7,332 nt of DNA from a virus. Taxonomy: Duplodnaviria > Heunggongvirae > Uroviricota > Caudoviricetes. The notes beneath the pieces were generated by a model. The model ran no database searches. It was not told the origin of the DNA and worked only from the letters and a program-made list of their open reading frames with translations. The stretch lies in IMG/VR virus record IMGVR_UViG_2695420564_000011; one strand, 5' to 3'. The translations under genes were made by a program, and so were the position numbers. The first letter of the stretch is position 1, and each line of letters starts with the position of its first letter. Below, piece after piece: positions 1 to 7,332 of the stretch.

Positions 1-648
1 ATGAAAATCGCCGATCTCGCTGAAGCAATAGGAGTGGATGCGGCGAATATCTCACGCCTGGAAACAGGTAAGCAGAAACAATTCACTGAACAAGCCCTGA
101 GTAATATTGCCAGGAGCTTAGGTGTTGATATTGCAGATCTCTTTACCTCAGACTTCAAAAGTAATACTGTATGTAAAAACAGTGCTTGTGAGGATGTTGC
201 GCAGGTGAAGGATGTATTCCGTATTGAAATGCTGGATGTCAGTGCCAGTGCGGGAAATGGCCTTATCCAGGGCGGTGATGTCATTGATGTGATTCATGCC
301 ATTGAATACAGAACTGATAATGCTGTATCGATGTTTGGCGGACGGCCAGCCAATCACATTAAAGTTATCAACGTTCGTGGGGACAGTATGTGTCCAACCA
401 TTGAGCCAGGAGATCTCATCTTCGTTGATGTCAGTATCAATCAGTTTGATGGAGATGGTATCTATGTATTTGGTTTTGATGATAAAATTTATGTCAAACG
501 ACTGCAAATGATACCTGACAAACTACTGGTGATTTCTGATAACCAGATTTACCGTGAATGGGGAATTACCAGCGAAAATGAACACCGGTTTATGGTCTTT
601 GGAAAGGTCTTAATCAGCCAGTCACAAACCCTTAAGCGACACAATTAA
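1..648 (+). CDS. CI-like prophage repressor (HTH_XRE DNA-binding domain + S24 LexA-type autopeptidase domain); probably 5'-truncated by the window edge
   Basis: HTH recognition segment KIADLAEAIGVDAANISRLETGK sits at the extreme N-terminus with no room for helix 1, so the gene likely starts upstream of the window. C-terminal domain has a candidate Ala-Gly cleavage site (SASAGNG), a GDSM serine motif (VRGDSMCPTIEPGDLIFVD) and a VKRL lysine motif (IYVKRLQM), matching the LexA/lambda CI Ser-Lys dyad. Stop TAA at 646-648. Confidence 0.85.
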   Translation: MKIADLAEAIGVDAANISRLETGKQKQFTEQALSNIARSLGVDIADLFTSDFKSNTVCKNSACEDVAQVKDVFRIEMLDVSASAGNGLIQGGDVIDVIHAIEYRTDNAVSMFGGRPANHIKVINVRGDSMCPTIEPGDLIFVDVSINQFDGDGIYVFGFDDKIYVKRLQMIPDKLLVISDNQIYREWGITSENEHRFMVFGKVLISQSQTLKRHN

Positions 649-756: not shown

Positions 757-1168
757 TCTTTCCAGACAAACAAACAAGGTACTAACAAAATTTGGTTGTA
801 ACACGGCGTATGGCACATGCGTCGTTAGCGGTCTGGGGACGTTAAAGGGGACAATCCACTCCTTGCTCGGGCAAACAAACCAGGTAGCCGGAATGTGCAA
901 GTCAATGATGATGCTGATAAGACGCCTAACCAGCGTCGCGATTCGGTTTGACGCCTGGGAAGAGACCAGGGTGCAACGATGAGGGCATTTATGGAACCGC
1001 GACAAAGTGTGGTGCCGTAACTGGCTAAGTGCTCTCAGCGTTGTGGTAATCCGCGAAATGGCGCGGCGGTAAGTATGGCGGGGTTATTCCTTCCCCGTTG
1101 AGGACACCGGGTTGTCAGGTTGACCATACGCTTAAGTGACAAGCCCACCACAACAGCCACTGCTTTGG

Positions 1169-1213
1169 CGGTACCAGTTTGTACACTTGCTTCCGGCTGG
1201 TACCGCTCTTTTT
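1169..1213 (+). terminator. Terminator-like hairpin inside the leader (CGGTACCAG ... CTGGTACCG followed by CTCTTTTT)
   Basis: 9-bp perfect stem (1169-1177 / 1197-1205) with a 19-nt loop, followed by a T-rich tract at 1206-1213. The large loop is atypical for a strong intrinsic terminator, so this may be an attenuator or pause site. Confidence 0.4.
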
Positions 1214-1302
1214 ACAAAACAGAGAAGAGCATCACCGGACGACGGGCTCATAACCCAATCCACCCGGGCGGCTGCCACCGCAGGTGCTCTTCTCTGTTTT
1301 GT
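1214..1302. repeat. 18-bp perfect inverted repeat (ACAAAACAGAGAAGAGCA at 1214-1231; reverse complement TGCTCTTCTCTGTTTTGT at 1285-1302) flanking a 53-bp spacer
   Basis: Read directly from the sequence; arms are exact reverse complements. Located about 50 nt upstream of the yfdP-like start codon. Would form a long RNA hairpin or a DNA cruciform/binding site. Confidence 0.9.
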
Positions 1303-1350
1303 GGAGAAACCAACCGACCTTGCAGGGTCGATATGATGAGGAGCAGCAAA

Positions 1351-1713
1351 ATGGCTAGCGAACGCAGTACTGATGTGCAGGCATTTATCGGGGAGCTGGA
1401 CGGCGGCGTATTTGAAACCAAAATCGGCGCTGTTCTCAGTGAAGTCGCTTCAGGTGTGATGAACACGAAAACCAAAGGGAAGGTCTCGCTCAACCTGGAA
1501 ATCGAACCGTTTGATGAGAACCGTGTGAAAATAAAACACAAACTCTCATATGTTCGTCCGACTAACCGCGGGAAAATTTCCGAAGAAGACACCACCGAAA
1601 CGCCGATGTATGTCAATCGCGGTGGTCGCCTGACTATTCTGCAGGAAGACCAAGGACAATTACTGACTCTTGCCGGTGAACCTGACGGAAAACTCCGCGC
1701 AGCAGGTCATTAA
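1351..1713 (+). CDS. yfdP: YfdP-like prophage protein, 120 aa, function unknown
   Basis: ATG at 1351 is preceded by GAGGA (1338-1342) at 8-nt spacing. Upstream in-frame sequence is non-protein-like and overlaps the leader hairpins. Alternative start at 1333 (MMRSSKM...). Length of 120 aa matches my recollection of E. coli CPS-53 YfdP; not verified by search. Confidence 0.7.
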   Translation: MASERSTDVQAFIGELDGGVFETKIGAVLSEVASGVMNTKTKGKVSLNLEIEPFDENRVKIKHKLSYVRPTNRGKISEEDTTETPMYVNRGGRLTILQEDQGQLLTLAGEPDGKLRAAGH

Positions 1714-1778
1714 TATCGTTCTTAATTAACTGATTATTTATCTCATCACTGAATATCCTTATATAGTGAGGACTTATT

Positions 1779-2603
1779 ATGTCTCAGAACTTAGACGCAA
1801 CCGCAATTAATCAAATCCATGCCCTTATTTCTGCTCAGGGTGTTAATGAAATTATTAGTAAGATTGGTGCCGATGCTGTGGCATTGCCTGAGAATTTCCG
1901 CATTCATGATCTGGAAAAATTTAATTTAAATCGCTTCCGTTTCCGTGGTGCGCTTTCCACTGCCAGCATCGATGACTTTACCCGTTATTCTAAAGATCTT
2001 GCAGATGAAGGCACCCGCTGCTTTATCGATGCCGATAATATGCGTGCCGTCAGTGTGCTTAACCTGGGTACTATTGATGAACCAGGTCACGCAGATAACA
2101 CCGCCACTCTCAAACTGAAAAAGACAGCACCGTTCTCTGCTCTGTTGTCTGTTAATGGCGAGCGTAACTCCCAAAAGTCACTGGCAGAATGGATTGAAGA
2201 CTGGGCCGACTACCTTGTGGGCTTTGATGCTAATGGTGACGCCATTCAGGCAACCAAAGCGGCTGCGGCGATCCGTAAAATCACAATTGAAGCGAACCAG
2301 ACCGCTGATTTTGAAGACAATGACTTCAGCGGCAAACGCTCCCTGATGGAGTCTGTCGAAGCGAAGACCAAAGACATTATGCCAGTGGCATTTGAATTTA
2401 AATGCGTTCCGTTTGAAGGCCTGAAAGAACGTCCGTTTAAATTACGCCTCAGCATTATCACTGGCGATCGTCCTGTACTGGTTCTGCGCATTATTCAGCT
2501 GGAAGCGGTGCAGGAAGAAATGGCTAACGAATTTCGTGATCTGCTTGTTGAGAAATTTAAAGACAGCAAAGTAGAAACCTTTATTGGTACTTTCACCGCC
2601 TGA
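1779..2603 (+). CDS. yfdQ: YfdQ-like prophage protein (DUF2303 family), 274 aa
   Basis: ATG at 1779 with TGAGGA RBS 8 nt upstream. N-terminus [12 protein letters not shown] and the 274-aa length match my recollection of CPS-53 YfdQ; not verified. Confidence 0.8.
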
Positions 2604-2615
2604 TTTCATTACTGC

Positions 2616-2637
2616 AAATGCCCCTGCGGGGGCATTT
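2616..2637. other. Hairpin in the yfdQ-yfdR intergenic region (AAATGCCCC-TGCG-GGGGCATTT)
   Basis: 9-bp inverted repeat with a 4-nt loop, 13 nt after the yfdQ stop. Only a short T-run follows, so it is at best a weak terminator or an RNA processing/stability element. Confidence 0.35.
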
Positions 2638-2730
2638 ATGGAAACATAATTTACTCAATAATCGCCGGATGGTGAGGGCTTCCTTTTACCAGAATTCAGC
2701 GCGGTGCAGCGCATATACGTGGAGAACAAA

Positions 2731-3267
2731 ATGTCATTTATTAAAACTTTTTCCGGGAAGCATTTTTATTATGACAAGATAAATAAAGACGACATCGTTA
2801 TTAACGATATCGCGGTTTCCCTTTCAAATATCTGTCGCTTTGCAGGACATCTTTCACACTTCTACAGCGTCGCCCAACATGCGGTGCTTTGCAGCCAGCT
2901 GGTACCGCAGGAATTTGCTTTTGAAGCGTTAATGCATGATGCAACAGAAGCATATTGCCAGGACATCCCCGCACCACTGAAACGCCTTCTTCCTGACTAT
3001 AAACGGATGGAAGAAAAAATAGACGCCGTAATCCGTGAGAAATACGGGTTACCTCCTGTTATGAGCACGCCAGTGAAATATGCCGATCTCATTATGCTGG
3101 CAACCGAACGCCGCGATCTCGGGCTTGATGATGGTTCTTTCTGGCCTGTACTGGAAGGTATCCCGGCGACAGAGATGTTCAAAGTTATTCCACTGTCACC
3201 AGGCCATGCCTACGGGATGTTTATGGAACGTTTTAACGAGTTATCGGGGTTACGCAAATGCGCATGA
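2731..3267 (+). CDS. yfdR: YfdR-like HD-domain phosphohydrolase (5'-deoxynucleotidase family), 178 aa
   Basis: ATG at 2731 with GGAGA RBS (2721-2725) at 5-nt spacing; the track's upstream GTG start at 2704 is less likely. HD signature present (H..H ... LMHDATEAY). MSFIKTFSGKHFYYDKI N-terminus and 178-aa length match my recollection of CPS-53 YfdR. Confidence 0.85.
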   Translation: MSFIKTFSGKHFYYDKINKDDIVINDIAVSLSNICRFAGHLSHFYSVAQHAVLCSQLVPQEFAFEALMHDATEAYCQDIPAPLKRLLPDYKRMEEKIDAVIREKYGLPPVMSTPVKYADLIMLATERRDLGLDDGSFWPVLEGIPATEMFKVIPLSPGHAYGMFMERFNELSGLRKCA

Positions 3268-3845
3268 ATGTTTTCGAAATGGAAGGGTTTCTTCGCGGGA
3301 AATGTGTACCGCGAGATCTGAAAGTGAACGAAACAAACGCTGAGTACCTAGTGCGTAAATTTGCTGAAGCTGAGGCCAAGTGCGCGGCGCTGGCTGAACG
3401 TATCGAAGAGTTACAGACAAAACCTACGCCAGATTCGTTTGGCATCATCGGTGAAAATATTCGAACACAGGATAATCGAATAACGTCAGACCCTATGTTT
3501 TGTGTGTATCAAAAGCGCGAAATTGTTGTTGATGCTGATTATGACTATGACCGGATTGTCTGGGTTGATGAAGATGGCAATGAAGCCAATAAACTCCAAA
3601 GTCGTCGTCTCGAACCACTTCATGAAAACTTTCGGGAACCACCAGAAAAATGGCGGCGCGTTGCTGTGAAAGATATTGATGAATTCGTTACCTGCTGTTT
3701 CACCGAACAGGGTTGTAAAGACTACCTGGCAGCCAATGGTCACAATCTTCGCTTGCCATTTATATATGTAAAAAGCGGTTTCAGGAACGCTGAATATATC
3801 GGCATAAGAACCTGGCTTGCTGGCATTCGCATCAAAGGAGAGTGA
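3258..3845 (+). CDS. YfdS-like prophage protein, 195 aa (longer than the 120-aa K-12 YfdS as I remember it)
   Basis: Start ATG at 3258 overlaps the yfdR 3' end; alternative ATG at 3264 overlaps the yfdR stop as ATGA, suggesting translational coupling. Stop TGA at 3843-3845. N-terminal ~75 aa look coiled-coil-like (AEAEAKCAALAERIEELQ). Confidence 0.65.
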   Translation: MRMNVFEMEGFLRGKCVPRDLKVNETNAEYLVRKFAEAEAKCAALAERIEELQTKPTPDSFGIIGENIRTQDNRITSDPMFCVYQKREIVVDADYDYDRIVWVDEDGNEANKLQSRRLEPLHENFREPPEKWRRVAVKDIDEFVTCCFTEQGCKDYLAANGHNLRLPFIYVKSGFRNAEYIGIRTWLAGIRIKGE

Positions 3846-3846
3846 G

Positions 3847-4038
3847 ATGAACGGACAAATATCAATTGTTCGACCAGGAGCATGTGACGATCGCGAAATA
3901 CGAATGATTATTCGTCTGGCGATGGGGAAAACAATAACTGCTCTCATTACTCCAGAAAATCTCGCATTAGCATTAACAGGAAAGTCAGACCTGCCAGTAG
4001 AGCTAAAGCTGCGAAATGTTGAGATTAAGGTGAAATAG
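3847..4038 (+). CDS. Small prophage protein, 63 aa, unknown function
   Basis: ATG at 3847 sits 2 nt after the preceding stop, with AAGGAGAG RBS at 3835-3842. The track's longer start at 3817 would overlap the previous gene and is less likely. Confidence 0.55.
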   Translation: MNGQISIVRPGACDDREIRMIIRLAMGKTITALITPENLALALTGKSDLPVELKLRNVEIKVK

Positions 4039-4040
4039 CT

Positions 4041-4631
4041 ATGACCACTTTTACCAATAGCAAACTAACAGACGAATACGTTTCAAATGCAACGTTGATT
4101 CGGCTCATTCTGTGGGCTGACCAGCACAATAGCCATTATGTTGTAGCGGCTCTGCGCGAGCTACAGGAGCGCCGCAAGGCTGATAGTGCAGAACCTGTAA
4201 GCCAAACTTACAAGTTGCCAGTTAATACACCTTGCCAAGATGCGCCAGCCCATATCTGGCTGCAAACGGCTGGAGTATGGCCAGAAGATGGCGAGTTAAG
4301 CGAATTAACGTGGTGCAGCCACAATCAACACCATGATGACACGCTATATGTTCGAGCTGACCTTGTGAATGGCAACTATCCGGCAACTCCGGATGGTTGG
4401 ATAAGCTGTAGTGAGCGAATGCCTGAAATGGGAGAGCGACAATGCTATGTGTTAGCAGCTGACTTTAAAAACAACTACCCACCAAACATCCCCAACACTC
4501 AGGTCGGCGTATATGGCGACTGGTTTAATGATGGCAAGCCCACTTGGGATGACGGTGATGGCGAAGACCTGTATCTCAAAGAGGTAACCCACTGGATGCA
4601 GCTACCAGAACCGCCGCAGGAGGTGAAATGA
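4041..4631 (+). CDS. DUF551-family prophage protein, 196 aa
   Basis: C-terminal region (GWISCSERMPEMGERQCYVLAAD ... VTHWMQLPEPP) is characteristic of DUF551 proteins common in lambdoid early-left ea regions. Starts 3 nt after the previous stop. Confidence 0.75.
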   Translation: MTTFTNSKLTDEYVSNATLIRLILWADQHNSHYVVAALRELQERRKADSAEPVSQTYKLPVNTPCQDAPAHIWLQTAGVWPEDGELSELTWCSHNQHHDDTLYVRADLVNGNYPATPDGWISCSERMPEMGERQCYVLAADFKNNYPPNIPNTQVGVYGDWFNDGKPTWDDGDGEDLYLKEVTHWMQLPEPPQEVK

Positions 4632-4714
4632 TGAATTGGCCTGAAGCATTCACCGCAGTTGGAGTTGCAATAGCGGTGGCATTTATTCTGTATTCGCTTT
4701 TCCGCTGGGGATAA
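4628..4714 (+). CDS. 28-aa hydrophobic micropeptide (MMNWPEAFTAVGVAIAVAFILYSLFRWG), probable single-pass membrane peptide
   Basis: ATG at 4628 overlaps the DUF551 stop TGA (4629-4631) as ATGA. Single hydrophobic helix-length core, aromatic/basic C-terminus, stop TAA at 4712-4714. Below the ORF-track size cutoff; hand-translated. Confidence 0.4.
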   Translation: MMNWPEAFTAVGVAIAVAFILYSLFRWG

Positions 4715-4718
4715 AGGA

Positions 4719-4961
4719 ATGTTCGCTCTGATTCAACGTGGTCAGATATACACGGACAGAGCCGGATACCCTGTGGTGATTACTCGCAGTACTCAGCACT
4801 CAGTGTTCTTTCGACGCATGGACGGGCGCTCCGGACGGGTACGCATTGGTGAGTTCAACAACCTGTTCGAACATATTGACCAACAGGAGTACCGCAAAAT
4901 TCTGGCGGGCACTGAGCAGGAAATGCGCCTGAAAAAATTACGCGCAATGCAACGGAGGTGA
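4719..4961 (+). CDS. Small prophage protein, 80 aa, unknown function (possibly DUF4222-like; family assignment uncertain)
   Basis: ATG at 4719 is 5 nt after the micropeptide stop. Basic C-terminus (EQEMRLKKLRAMQRR). Stop TGA at 4959-4961. Confidence 0.65.
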   Translation: MFALIQRGQIYTDRAGYPVVITRSTQHSVFFRRMDGRSGRVRIGEFNNLFEHIDQQEYRKILAGTEQEMRLKKLRAMQRR

Positions 4962-4964
4962 TAC

Positions 4965-5099
4965 ATGCATACGGCTTTTGAGTTCTGGGTTCGCAAGACA
5001 TTCGGCAATCGCTACGACCTGACCCGTGATGTCGACGGCTTCTACTGCCGTGAAGTTGTGAAACGAATGTTTGACGTGTGGTGCCACTGCCGTGGATGA
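4965..5099 (+). CDS. 44-aa Cys-rich small protein (MHTAFEFWVRKTFGNRYDLTRDVDGFYCREVVKRMFDVWCHCRG)
   Basis: ATG at 4965 with GGAGG RBS (4954-4958) at 6-nt spacing, 4 nt after the previous stop. Stop TGA at 5097-5099. Hand-translated; not in the ORF track because of size. Confidence 0.45.
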   Translation: MHTAFEFWVRKTFGNRYDLTRDVDGFYCREVVKRMFDVWCHCRG

Positions 5100-5117
5100 A
5101 AGTTTTATGAGGTTGGC

Positions 5118-5236
5118 ATGCAGACAATCATCTATCAGATAACCCCCAGCAAATGGTGTACGGAGAGAGTCCTTATTGCATCAACAGGGCTAAAGCCCGG
5201 CACCATCGAGCGGGCCAGAAGAAAGTCATGGATGCA
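5118..5236 (+). CDS. N-terminal fragment (39 codons) of an excisionase/AlpA-like DNA-binding protein, truncated at the junction at 5237
   Basis: ATG at 5118 with GAGG RBS (5109-5112). Sequence MQTIIYQITPSKWCTERVLIASTGLKPGTIERARRKSWM resembles the W...T..ARR pattern of phage Xis-like winged-helix proteins. The reading frame then runs into antisense groEL sequence, which is not meaningful. Confidence 0.35.
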
Positions 5237-5237
5237 N

Positions 5238-6399
<1,162 letters not shown>

Positions 6400-6407
6400 N
6401 NGNNNNN

Positions 6408-6437
6408 ATAGCCGGTACCGGAAATGGTAATTTTCAT
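6408..6437 (-). pseudogene. ugd: First 10 codons of ugd (UDP-glucose 6-dehydrogenase; MKITISGTGY), joined through an N-block to the groEL fragment
   Basis: Reverse complement of 6408-6437 is ATGAAAATTACCATTTCCGGTACCGGCTAT, matching the Ugd N-terminus MKITISGTGYVGLSNG as I recall it. Expected position immediately downstream of gnd. Confidence 0.6.
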
Positions 6438-6510
6438 TTCATGCTCTCAGAATTAACTTAGCTGTGAATCATGATGTTTTAGCATCCTGATAGAAGTTAA
6501 AATTTTTAGC

Positions 6511-6538
6511 GCTACGCTGATCCCAGCATCAGCGTAGC
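6511..6538. repeat. 11-bp perfect inverted repeat (GCTACGCTGAT / ATCAGCGTAGC) with 6-nt loop in the gnd-ugd intergenic region
   Basis: Read directly from sequence. No T-run follows on either strand, so it is not a canonical terminator; it could be a regulator binding site or RNA stem in the ugd promoter/leader region. Confidence 0.8.
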
Positions 6539-6624
6539 AACAAAATCAGACTTTACTTATAAGTATAGCTGATATTTATTAAGTTAATATTAAGCAATGA
6601 AATTTAATCTATAGGATTATTGGC

Positions 6625-6655
6625 AAAAAAAACCCGGCAATATATGCCGGGCCTC
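6625..6655 (-). terminator. Intrinsic terminator of gnd
   Basis: On the minus strand: GAGG-CCCGGCA-TATAT-TGCCGGG followed by eight T (plus-strand A-run 6625-6632). Lies about 24 nt downstream of the gnd stop codon. Confidence 0.85.
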
Positions 6656-6678
6656 AATTTATTGCTGATTAAATTAGA

Positions 6679-7332
6679 TTAATCCAGCCATTCAGTATGG
6701 AACACACCTTCTTTATCAATGCGCTTATAAGTATGCGCACCGAAATAGTCACGCTGAGCCTGGATCAGGTTCGCAGGCAGCACCGCGGCACGGTAGCTAT
6801 CGTAATAAGCAACCGCCGCAGAGAAGGTTGGAACTGGGATACCGTTTTGCACTGCATAAGCGACGACATCACGCAGTGCCTGCTGGTAGTCATCGGCGAT
6901 TTTCTTGAAATACGGAGCTAACAGCAGGTTAGCGATTTTTGGATTTTCGGCATAGGCATCGGTGATTTTCTGCAGGAACTGCGCACGGATGATGCAGCCA
7001 GCACGGAAAATCTTCGCGATTTCACCGTAGTTCAGATCCCAGTTGTATTCTTCAGACGCAGCACGCAGCTGAGAGAAGCCCTGAGCGTAAGAAACGATTT
7101 TTCCCAGATACAGCGCACGACGAACTTTCTCGATAAACTCAGCCTTATCGCCTGCTGGCTGCGCTTGCGGACCAGAAAGTACTTTAGATGCGGCAACACG
7201 CTGATCTTTCAGAGAAGAGATATAACGTGCAAACACAGACTCGGTAATCAGCGACAGCGGTTCGCCGAGATCCAGCGCACTCTGACTGGTCCATTTACCG
7301 GTGCCTTTATTAGCCGCTTCATCCAGGATCAC
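6679..7332 (-). CDS. gnd: 6-phosphogluconate dehydrogenase (decarboxylating), C-terminal 217 aa; 5' part lies beyond the window
   Basis: Translation ...[51 protein letters not shown] ... [24 protein letters not shown] matches the enterobacterial Gnd C-terminal domain. Stop TAA at 6679-6681 on the minus strand; ORF open to the window edge. Confidence 0.95.

Follow-up and report, generated by a model that had tools for sequence, protein, structure and literature searches.

The window, a 7332-nucleotide stretch of DNA from a virus of the class Caudoviricetes (IMG/VR record IMGVR_UViG_2695420564_000011), contains a micro-open reading frame (micro-ORF) that is very probably a genuine gene for a 27-residue single-pass inner-membrane micropeptide, which may act by binding another membrane protein. 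The micro-ORF lies on the plus strand between a DUF551 gene and a DUF4222 gene. A first-pass annotation had placed it at 4628..4714, where it encodes MMNWPEAFTAVGVAIAVAFILYSLFRWG, and had proposed a real small membrane peptide gene that is missed by gene callers. The sequence and the list of open reading frames (ORFs) agree with this position and with the hydrophobic core that was quoted, and the proposal itself is supported by conservation of the reading frame and by a bias towards synonymous substitutions. The form conserved across the family occupies 4631..4714 (27 codons and a TAA stop at 4712-4714) and encodes MNWPEAFTAVGVAIAVAFILYSLFRWG. Sequence comparison makes it close to certain that this is a real, translated gene, and structure and hydropathy predictions make it highly likely that the peptide inserts into the membrane. 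A binder or modulator mode of action, drawn from analogy with known small proteins, is a tentative assignment that could well be wrong.

Conservation of the frame was assessed in three samples. For a DUF4222-anchored sample, 80 IMG/VR loci were fetched via the DUF4222 protein, blind to the micro-ORF, and these contained 18 distinct upstream sequences. Three alleles were present, A ((M)MNWPEAFTAVGVAIAVAFILYSLFRWG), B (MSWPDAIVTLGVVFAAAFVVFSICRWG) and C (MTWPEALTTVGIAMAVTLMVYSICRWG), with DNA identity of only 67-79 %. The micro-ORF frame was open in 79 of the 80 loci and the remaining two sense frames were closed. A DNA-pattern scan of IMG/VR, consisting of ATGANNTGGCNTGANGCA, 54 free bases and CGNTGG with only 19 bases fixed, was pooled with the earlier loci and gave at least 212 copies, at least 54 distinct 81-nt alleles (at least 59 when six flanking bases were counted), at least 31 distinct peptides and at least 95 distinct flanks. 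Counts of copies, alleles, peptides and contexts given from here on refer to the matches listed for this pooled set. All 212 copies lacked an in-frame stop within the 54 free bases and had a stop at codon 28, while both alternative sense frames contained stops in 54 of 54 alleles. The stop codon was TAA in 90 and TGA in five of 95 distinct contexts. The third sample was based on similarity only (tblastn). Of its 93 phage records, 91 had a match spanning at least 80 % of the peptide, as did all 181 plasmid records. The frame, whose conservation in homologous prophages had been named as a check on the prediction, is thus kept across the sampled homologues.

The second check that had been named, synonymous-biased substitution, also singled out the micro-ORF frame among the three sense frames. 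Tree-based counts (neighbour-joining, free codons 7-24) gave 71 synonymous and 68 non-synonymous changes, corresponding to an omega of 0.35 (p = 1.6e-9), with omega values of 1.0 and 1.5 in the other two sense frames. Pairwise ratios of non-synonymous to synonymous substitution rates (dN/dS) among DUF4222-linked alleles were 0.22-0.42 in the ORF frame as compared with 0.7-5.9 in other frames. Inferred mutations at codon positions 1, 2 and 3 of the free part numbered 22, 13 and 36, respectively, and the commonest peptide, MTWPEAFTTVGIAMAVALVVYSICRWG, was specified by many distinct DNA sequences. As judged from these alleles, this shows that the peptide sequence has been under purifying selection.

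Several observations weigh against this reading. The window by itself does not set the ORF apart from chance, with the frame being open for at least 26 codons in 36 % of dinucleotide shuffles and an ORF filling the gap in 6 %; the 5.2-kb prophage part of the window holds 37 ORFs of at least 27 codons that begin with ATG. The significance of the ORF therefore comes from the comparison with related sequences only. Rare pseudogene copies were found, namely L082 (G-run insertion), L085 (1-nt deletion) and L216 (TGG-to-TAG). The DNA pattern forced the codons of M1, W3, A6, R25 and W26 as well as the A after the ATG, so invariance at these positions is to some extent a product of the search; the DUF4222-anchored and tblastn samples are free of this conditioning and agree with the pattern-based conserved positions. 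A conserved helix face was not significant when assessed as a helical moment of conservation (permutation p = 0.54), and for this reason no claim is made of a binding stripe or a GxxxA motif. A ribosome-profiling study of enterohaemorrhagic Escherichia coli Sakai (Hücker 2017) has neither the peptide nor its Sakai coordinates in its supplement; this silence is uninformative, since the study was confined to ORFs of 30 aa or more and to uninduced cultures. Lastly, the wobble-matched antisense frame has an omega of 0.33 and is open in 53 of 54 alleles.

The first of these points would be accounted for if the micro-ORF were a chance ORF in a conserved non-coding spacer, kept for its RNA structure or as a recombination 'boundary sequence' at which lambdoid modules are shuffled, and differing modules do meet in a mosaic joint at this segment. 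Such a spacer would not explain why substitutions are concentrated at third codon positions, nor why 54 alleles contain not one in-frame stop and the stop position is fixed. RNA folding of 4600-4730 was no better than that of shuffled sequences (z = +0.98). Rfam gave no real match at the gathering threshold for the whole window or at E <=1 around the ORF, the only hit being a chance snoRNA match. An RNA element at the micro-ORF is unlikely on these results, and a non-coding spacer is an extremely improbable explanation of the segment.

The last point bears on the choice of strand. A selected gene on the opposite strand, with the sense ORF as its mirror image, would fit the open antisense frame and its omega, and database ORFs antisense to the micro-ORF exist: C38 in phage Stx2 II (L219, 701-1450, minus strand) and WP_000481378.1 in L216 (1519-1794, minus strand). 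The C-terminal end of the latter reaches the micro-ORF copy that was inactivated by the nonsense change. A low antisense omega is, however, the expected mirror effect of selection on the sense strand, so that omega by itself cannot pick the strand. The sense strand was chosen because of its conserved Shine-Dalgarno site, start, stop and operon direction. Among 100 distinct contexts, 79 had no antisense ORF (with an ATG, GTG or TTG start) covering even half of the segment, and the 19 antisense ORFs that do cover it have differing start points in unrelated flanks. In the window, the antisense ORF in the wobble-matched frame starts at a GTG at 4653 and overlaps only about eight codons. An antisense gene was rejected following this survey and is scarcely credible; the open antisense frame is instead a mirror effect of the hydrophobic coding frame and may attract false gene calls.

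The start of the gene is marked by a Shine-Dalgarno site, AGGAGGTG, at 4618..4625 on the plus strand. This 8-mer is a perfect anti-Shine-Dalgarno match and is the full complement of the 16S rRNA 3' end. The first-pass annotation had started the ORF at the ATG at 4628..4630, giving 28 codons and an ATGA overlap with the TGA stop of the DUF551 gene at 4629-4631. The overlap is present as described and the ORF itself stands, but the start conserved in the family is the second ATG (4631-4633), which has one base in common with the DUF551 stop (TGATG) and gives 27 residues rather than 28. Among close variants of allele A, the first ATG is a GTG in L017 and L019 and is missing in L120 and L201. Alleles B and C carry the second ATG only. 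The Shine-Dalgarno site is 2 nt 5' of the first ATG and 5 nt 5' of the second. On the basis of these second-ATG-only alleles, the variable first ATG and the difference in spacing, the family is assigned 27 residues and the extra Met is taken to be allele-specific.

Both the Shine-Dalgarno site and the overlap are general properties of the family. A Shine-Dalgarno site was found in 89 of 95 contexts, as AGGAGGTG in 62 and as GGAGG in 27 more. The start overlapped the upstream stop in all 95 distinct contexts, with ATGA in 77 and TGATG or TAATG in 18. Coupling to the upstream gene, which had been proposed for the DUF551 gene, is supported by this overlap but is not specific to DUF551, for the module follows several other gene ends. 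At least five unrelated upstream C-termini precede the micro-ORF, these being DUF551-type ends (…PEPPQEV[NKR]Q), …NGLISVEDILR, …NDLKNIEQEVNR, the ends of internally deleted DUF551 genes and that of an unrelated protein in phage Av-05. The majority of upstream genes encode mosaic ead/Ea22-like proteins. In seven contexts the upstream ORF has been reduced to a remnant of fewer than 25 codons, and the micro-ORF is intact there. Upstream genes ending …GWISCSERMPDDRQEVNQ (L034, L044, L049 and others) look like internally deleted DUF551 genes whose domain start now directly abuts the last residues of the domain; neither the Shine-Dalgarno site nor the micro-ORF is affected by the deletion. A frameshift fusion of the micropeptide to the upstream protein was considered and rejected, as no slippery heptamer was seen by inspection in the last codons of the DUF551 gene, stops in the micro-ORF frame occur 12 codons upstream in allele B contexts, and the micro-ORF has its own conserved Shine-Dalgarno site and ATG.

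Downstream neighbours are equally varied and include a DUF4222 gene at +4, other genes at +2, mokW/hokW-sokW at +154 (933W) and convergent toxin-antitoxin or regulator genes. As both the upstream and the downstream genes differ, the travelling unit is the Shine-Dalgarno site with the 27 codons. Comparison of these contexts shows a self-contained module made up of a Shine-Dalgarno site, an ATG, 27 codons and a stop.

The arrangement in the window raises the question of whether the peptide matters at all. A translational relay, in which only the act of translation counts, ribosomes being passed to the DUF4222 gene, and the peptide is functionless, would fit the gap exactly. The DUF4222 ATG at 4719 begins 4 nt past the micro-ORF TAA, so that the 87-nt gap is filled precisely by the ORF, which overlaps the preceding stop as ATGA and leaves a 4-nt spacer before the next gene. 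A GGGGA within codons W26-G27 (4707..4711, plus strand) lies 7 nt 5' of the DUF4222 ATG and is the probable Shine-Dalgarno site of that gene, a role suggested by its sequence. All DUF4222-linked alleles have the same arrangement of TGGGGATAA and 4 nt followed by ATG. The final codons TGG GGA thus appear to serve a second purpose (window 4707-4711; equivalents in L003-L082), and the Gly codon varies (GGA, GGT, GGG) in contexts without a following gene. Against a pure relay stands the purifying selection on the peptide, in which all substitutions preserve a hydrophobic helix. Moreover, 47 of 95 contexts have no ATG within 12 nt past the micro-ORF stop, several of them with the next gene more than 100 nt off or convergent, and persistence in this half of the contexts argues against such a role. 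A functionless relay peptide is very unlikely.

The micro-ORF is located in the early-left accessory (exo-xis or 'ea') operon of lambdoid and related coliphages. Positions 775-5236 of the window have 99.5 % identity to prophages inserted at mlrA (yehV) in O26:H11 and other Shiga-toxin-producing E. coli. The gene order is a LexA-type repressor gene, yfdP, yfdQ, yfdR, two hypothetical genes, the DUF551 gene, the gap that holds the micro-ORF, the DUF4222 gene, a gene for a 44-aa protein, xisR and int. A scan of 3800-5250 detected no terminator-like sites, and no promoter-like sites on either strand, which places the micro-ORF within a polycistronic unit.

Three annotated genes adjoin the micro-ORF in this unit, all on the plus strand. 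The upstream gene (4041..4631), whose 196-aa product carries a DUF551 domain at its C-terminal end (Pfam E = 3.4e-20; a DUF551 domain-containing protein in RefSeq), belongs to the mosaic ead/Ea22-like accessory genes and overlaps both micro-ORF starts with its TGA stop. The downstream gene (4719..4961) encodes an 80-aa DUF4222 protein (Pfam E = 9.3e-16; phrog_285) and is annotated in RefSeq. It is followed at 4965..5099 by the gene for the 44-aa hypothetical protein (phrog_3871, E = 1.1e-32), also annotated in RefSeq, after which xis (xisR) and int follow in intact prophages.

The peptides of the family share a pattern that would suit a single membrane-spanning helix. The best 18-residue Kyte-Doolittle segment scored at least 1.70 in all 31 distinct peptides, and in 30 of the 31 the first six positions held a single acidic residue and the last four a single basic one. 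The consensus was M-[NST]-W-P-[ED]-A-(hydrophobic run with G11, A15 and A17)-[YF]-S-[ILV]-[CF]-R-W-[GW], with conservation at both ends (M-x-W-P-[ED]-A and [YF]-S-[ILV]-[CF]-R-W-[GW]) and at the small residues G11, A15 and A17. The window peptide has a Trp near each end (W3 and W26), E5 on the N-terminal side and R25 on the C-terminal side. AlphaFold2, run on the single sequence, predicted one helix at residues 6-28 of a 30-mer, equivalent to W3-R25 (23 residues), with a mean predicted local distance difference test score (pLDDT) of 89. Together with hydropathy and the charge pattern, this gives a predicted transmembrane helix from W3 to R25, encoded at 4637..4705 on the plus strand. The peptide thus has fewer than 50 residues and one predicted helix that is long enough for a bilayer, as expected of small single-pass membrane proteins. 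According to the positive-inside rule, a basic C-terminal end is expected on the cytoplasmic side of the membrane. An alternative in which the peptide is a lipoprotein or signal peptide, cleaved at …SIC|RWG, was rejected: the n-region is acidic, C24 is an F in the window allele and position -1 is bulky (Ile or Leu).

No significant family was found when several alleles or a profile were searched against Pfam, PHROGs, NCBIfam, PADLOC and the Protein Data Bank (PDB). The best sub-threshold matches were phrog_4612 (E = 1.1e-3, for one allele only) and DUF883_C (E = 0.07), with PDB matches at E >=2.8 and none in PADLOC. The match to KdpF (E = 0.024; 14.7 bits) fell short of its cutoff of 26.85. 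By sequence, the micropeptide is a new family within a known kind, that of small hydrophobic membrane proteins and conserved intergenic small ORFs, and not a new type of system.

The most likely role, proposed by analogy, is that of an early-lytic small membrane protein that binds another membrane protein. The micro-ORF would be expressed only while the early-left operon is transcribed, following induction or infection, a timing suggested by the lack of a promoter or terminator of its own. Ribosomes would re-initiate at the ATGA or TGATG overlap or load at the strong Shine-Dalgarno site. The peptide would then insert with its acidic N-terminal end outside and its Arg-Trp C-terminal end inside, as the positive-inside rule predicts, and its helix would pack onto a larger membrane protein, of the host or of the phage, and not wreck the membrane. 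A more specific version, which is improbable, is that the peptide acts as a functional partner (a membrane anchor or receptor) of the co-translated ead/Ea22-like/DUF551 proteins, or that it is a transmembrane modulator acting on a machine in the host inner membrane that controls the balance between lysis and lysogeny, such as FtsH/HflKC, in the way that MgtR steers FtsH.

Damage to the membrane is the principal alternative to binding. A peptide of the type I-toxin-like, holin-like or membrane-stress kind would oligomerise and depolarise or permeabilise the inner membrane. The micropeptide resembles TisB, Ibs, ShoB and Ldr-type toxins in size and hydrophobicity (in part from PMC12648545 and in part from general knowledge), is phage-borne and lies 154 nt upstream of hokW-sokW in 933W-type phages. 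However, the features that accompany such toxins were not seen: there was no antisense RNA, no Rfam match and, in the scan of 3800-5250, no promoter on either strand, and no match was found among toxin families in PADLOC, Pfam and NCBIfam. The dual start 'MM' is limited to one allele. Location within an operon behind a perfect Shine-Dalgarno site would give an early and abundant product, and early depolarisation would harm phage production. As a holin, the peptide would be out of place between DUF551 and DUF4222 genes in the early-left operon, upstream of xis and int and not in the lysis cassette. At 27 aa it is also far below holin size (typically at least 60 aa with a charged C-terminal tail), and its tail consists only of R-W-G. 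A membrane-damaging or holin-like role is accordingly judged doubtful and is ranked below the binder role, a ranking that is a matter of judgement.

The region around hokW-sokW has a particular layout in 933W-type phages (L218, 1201-1650; L093, L096 and others). The micro-ORF ends 154 nt 5' of mokW/hokW, sokW being encoded on the opposite strand, and two genes for small hydrophobic peptides are thus neighbours in these phages.

Comparison with known small proteins places the micropeptide near several groups. Caulobacter SidA (29 aa) is a small inner-membrane regulatory protein of similar length. MgtR (30 aa), MgtS (31 aa), KdpF (29 aa) and AcrZ (49 aa) act by binding larger membrane proteins (PMC12648545). 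Like these four, the micropeptide has fewer than 50 residues, a single hydrophobic helix, short polar ends and no other domain. Unlike them, it is phage-borne and translationally coupled in an early phage operon, and it has no sequence relationship to them. With type I toxins (Hok/Gef, TisB, Ldr, Ibs and ShoB, and the phage-borne hokW-sokW) it shares the nature of a small hydrophobic membrane peptide carried on mobile elements, but the micro-ORF is without an antisense RNA, a promoter of its own or a long structured leader and instead has a perfect Shine-Dalgarno site and upstream coupling.

The lambda exo-xis region contains non-essential accessory genes, is mosaic and encodes host-modulating small proteins (PMC8614690, PMC7093339, PMC4195576). 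The micropeptide resembles the early-left/exo-xis small proteins of lambda (Kil, CIII, Ea8.5, Orf60a, Orf61, Orf63, Orf73 and Ea22) in its neighbourhood and presumed timing. The lambda proteins, which are annotated, are of a soluble or amphipathic kind, whereas the micropeptide is predicted to be transmembrane and is absent from lambda, where a homologue after ea22 was looked for and not found. In the terms used by Fesenko et al. 2024 for small ORFs that lie between the genes of Enterobacteriaceae and are conserved by purifying selection (PMC11188072), it is an intergenic ORF of 15-70 codons with a dN/dS below 1 and a hydrophobic, probably transmembrane product; the peptide strings were not found in the supplementary files of that study. 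A literature search for the peptide strings returned no paper in the library covered. The exo-xis literature makes no mention of a membrane peptide, and the micro-ORF is unmentioned in the hokW-sokW paper and in the exo-xis modelling paper.

The family is widespread among coliphages and E. coli genomes. Among 5426 complete E. coli genomes, a 98-nt query of the commonest allele matched 3447 places in 1740, a minimum for the family as a whole, with up to eight per genome and 164 on plasmids. Members occur in phages 933W, Stx2 II, Min27, VT1-Sakai, BP-4795, YYZ-2008 and ArgO145 and in Sakai prophage Sp15. They were also found on plasmids of approximately 90-100 kb of E. coli, E. albertii, E. fergusonii and Salmonella, which are non-mobilizable and look phage-like. 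The virulent 121-kb Vequintavirinae phage Av-05 carries the module behind an unrelated gene (L091, 1501-1584); the micro-ORF exactly fills the gap there, the upstream gene ending at 1504 and the next beginning at 1587. A one-genome-per-species scan with two strict peptide patterns gave E. coli and Shigella only, apart from two tiny contigs. These contain the coliphage module and belong to a metagenome-assembled genome labelled Segatella copri (L085, 1780 bp) and to Acinetobacter idrijaensis (L086, 369 bp); both are probably due to contamination or mis-binning. L093 (PP818812.1, 'Actinobacillus phage vB_Apl-pPE4') has the same peptide allele as E. coli lambdoid phages. Its copy is one synonymous base away from that of ArgO145, the end of the upstream gene is shared and a Hok-family gene is present. 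In view of this, the Actinobacillus host given for L093 looks doubtful.

The first-pass annotation had described the micro-ORF as unannotated, which holds for the RefSeq records inspected but not for all of GenBank. None of 11 RefSeq records inspected annotates the ORF. Six of these were chromosome or plasmid records (the O26 chromosome, strain 2013C-3264, Sakai prophage Sp15 and three more from E. coli, including a plasmid) and five were phage records (YYZ-2008, ArgO145, Av-05, 933W and Stx2 II). Annotation of the micro-ORF was also missing from both GenBank-only phage records inspected. The exact peptide does appear in a few other GenBank submissions, entered there as a hypothetical protein, with lengths of 27 aa (ETI78407.1), 28 aa (ASL58468.1) and 45 aa (EMQ8345509.1).

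The window itself is a composite sequence. Similarity to prophages ends at 5236 and a single N is found at 5237. The remainder is taken up by two minus-strand genes, a fragment of groEL (5226..6437, with Ns at 6400-6407) followed by gnd (6679..7332). These two genes are not adjacent in E. coli, so positions 5237-7332 look like a scaffolding or concatenation artefact. The left end (1-775) contains an ORF for a 215-aa repressor-like protein (1..648) that lies outside the best O26-type prophage matches, which start at approximately 775. This protein is equal in length to the Sakai Sp15 repressor ECs_2990. The match boundary and the equal length hint at a mosaic joint, or a further assembly join, around 700-780.

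The exo-xis or 'ea' region of Shiga-toxin phages influences lysogenisation and induction and hence toxin release. The list of genes in this region has been treated as complete, and the present analysis now adds a strongly conserved gene to it, including in 933W and Sakai Sp15. At least one complete E. coli genome in three contains the micro-ORF, and standard annotation skips it, so deletion or over-expression constructs across the exo-xis region may unknowingly carry or remove it. The micro-ORF offers a clean, testable case of a phage-borne predicted transmembrane micropeptide whose expression is hard-wired to the preceding gene by a stop/start overlap. Should its function prove ordinary, the gain would still be a corrected annotation and a model for a new small-protein family. 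If the peptide were a partner of the ead/Ea22-like/DUF551 proteins or a modulator of the FtsH/HflKC type, the effects that have been published for the exo-xis region on the induction of Shiga-toxin prophages would involve a player so far unrecognised.

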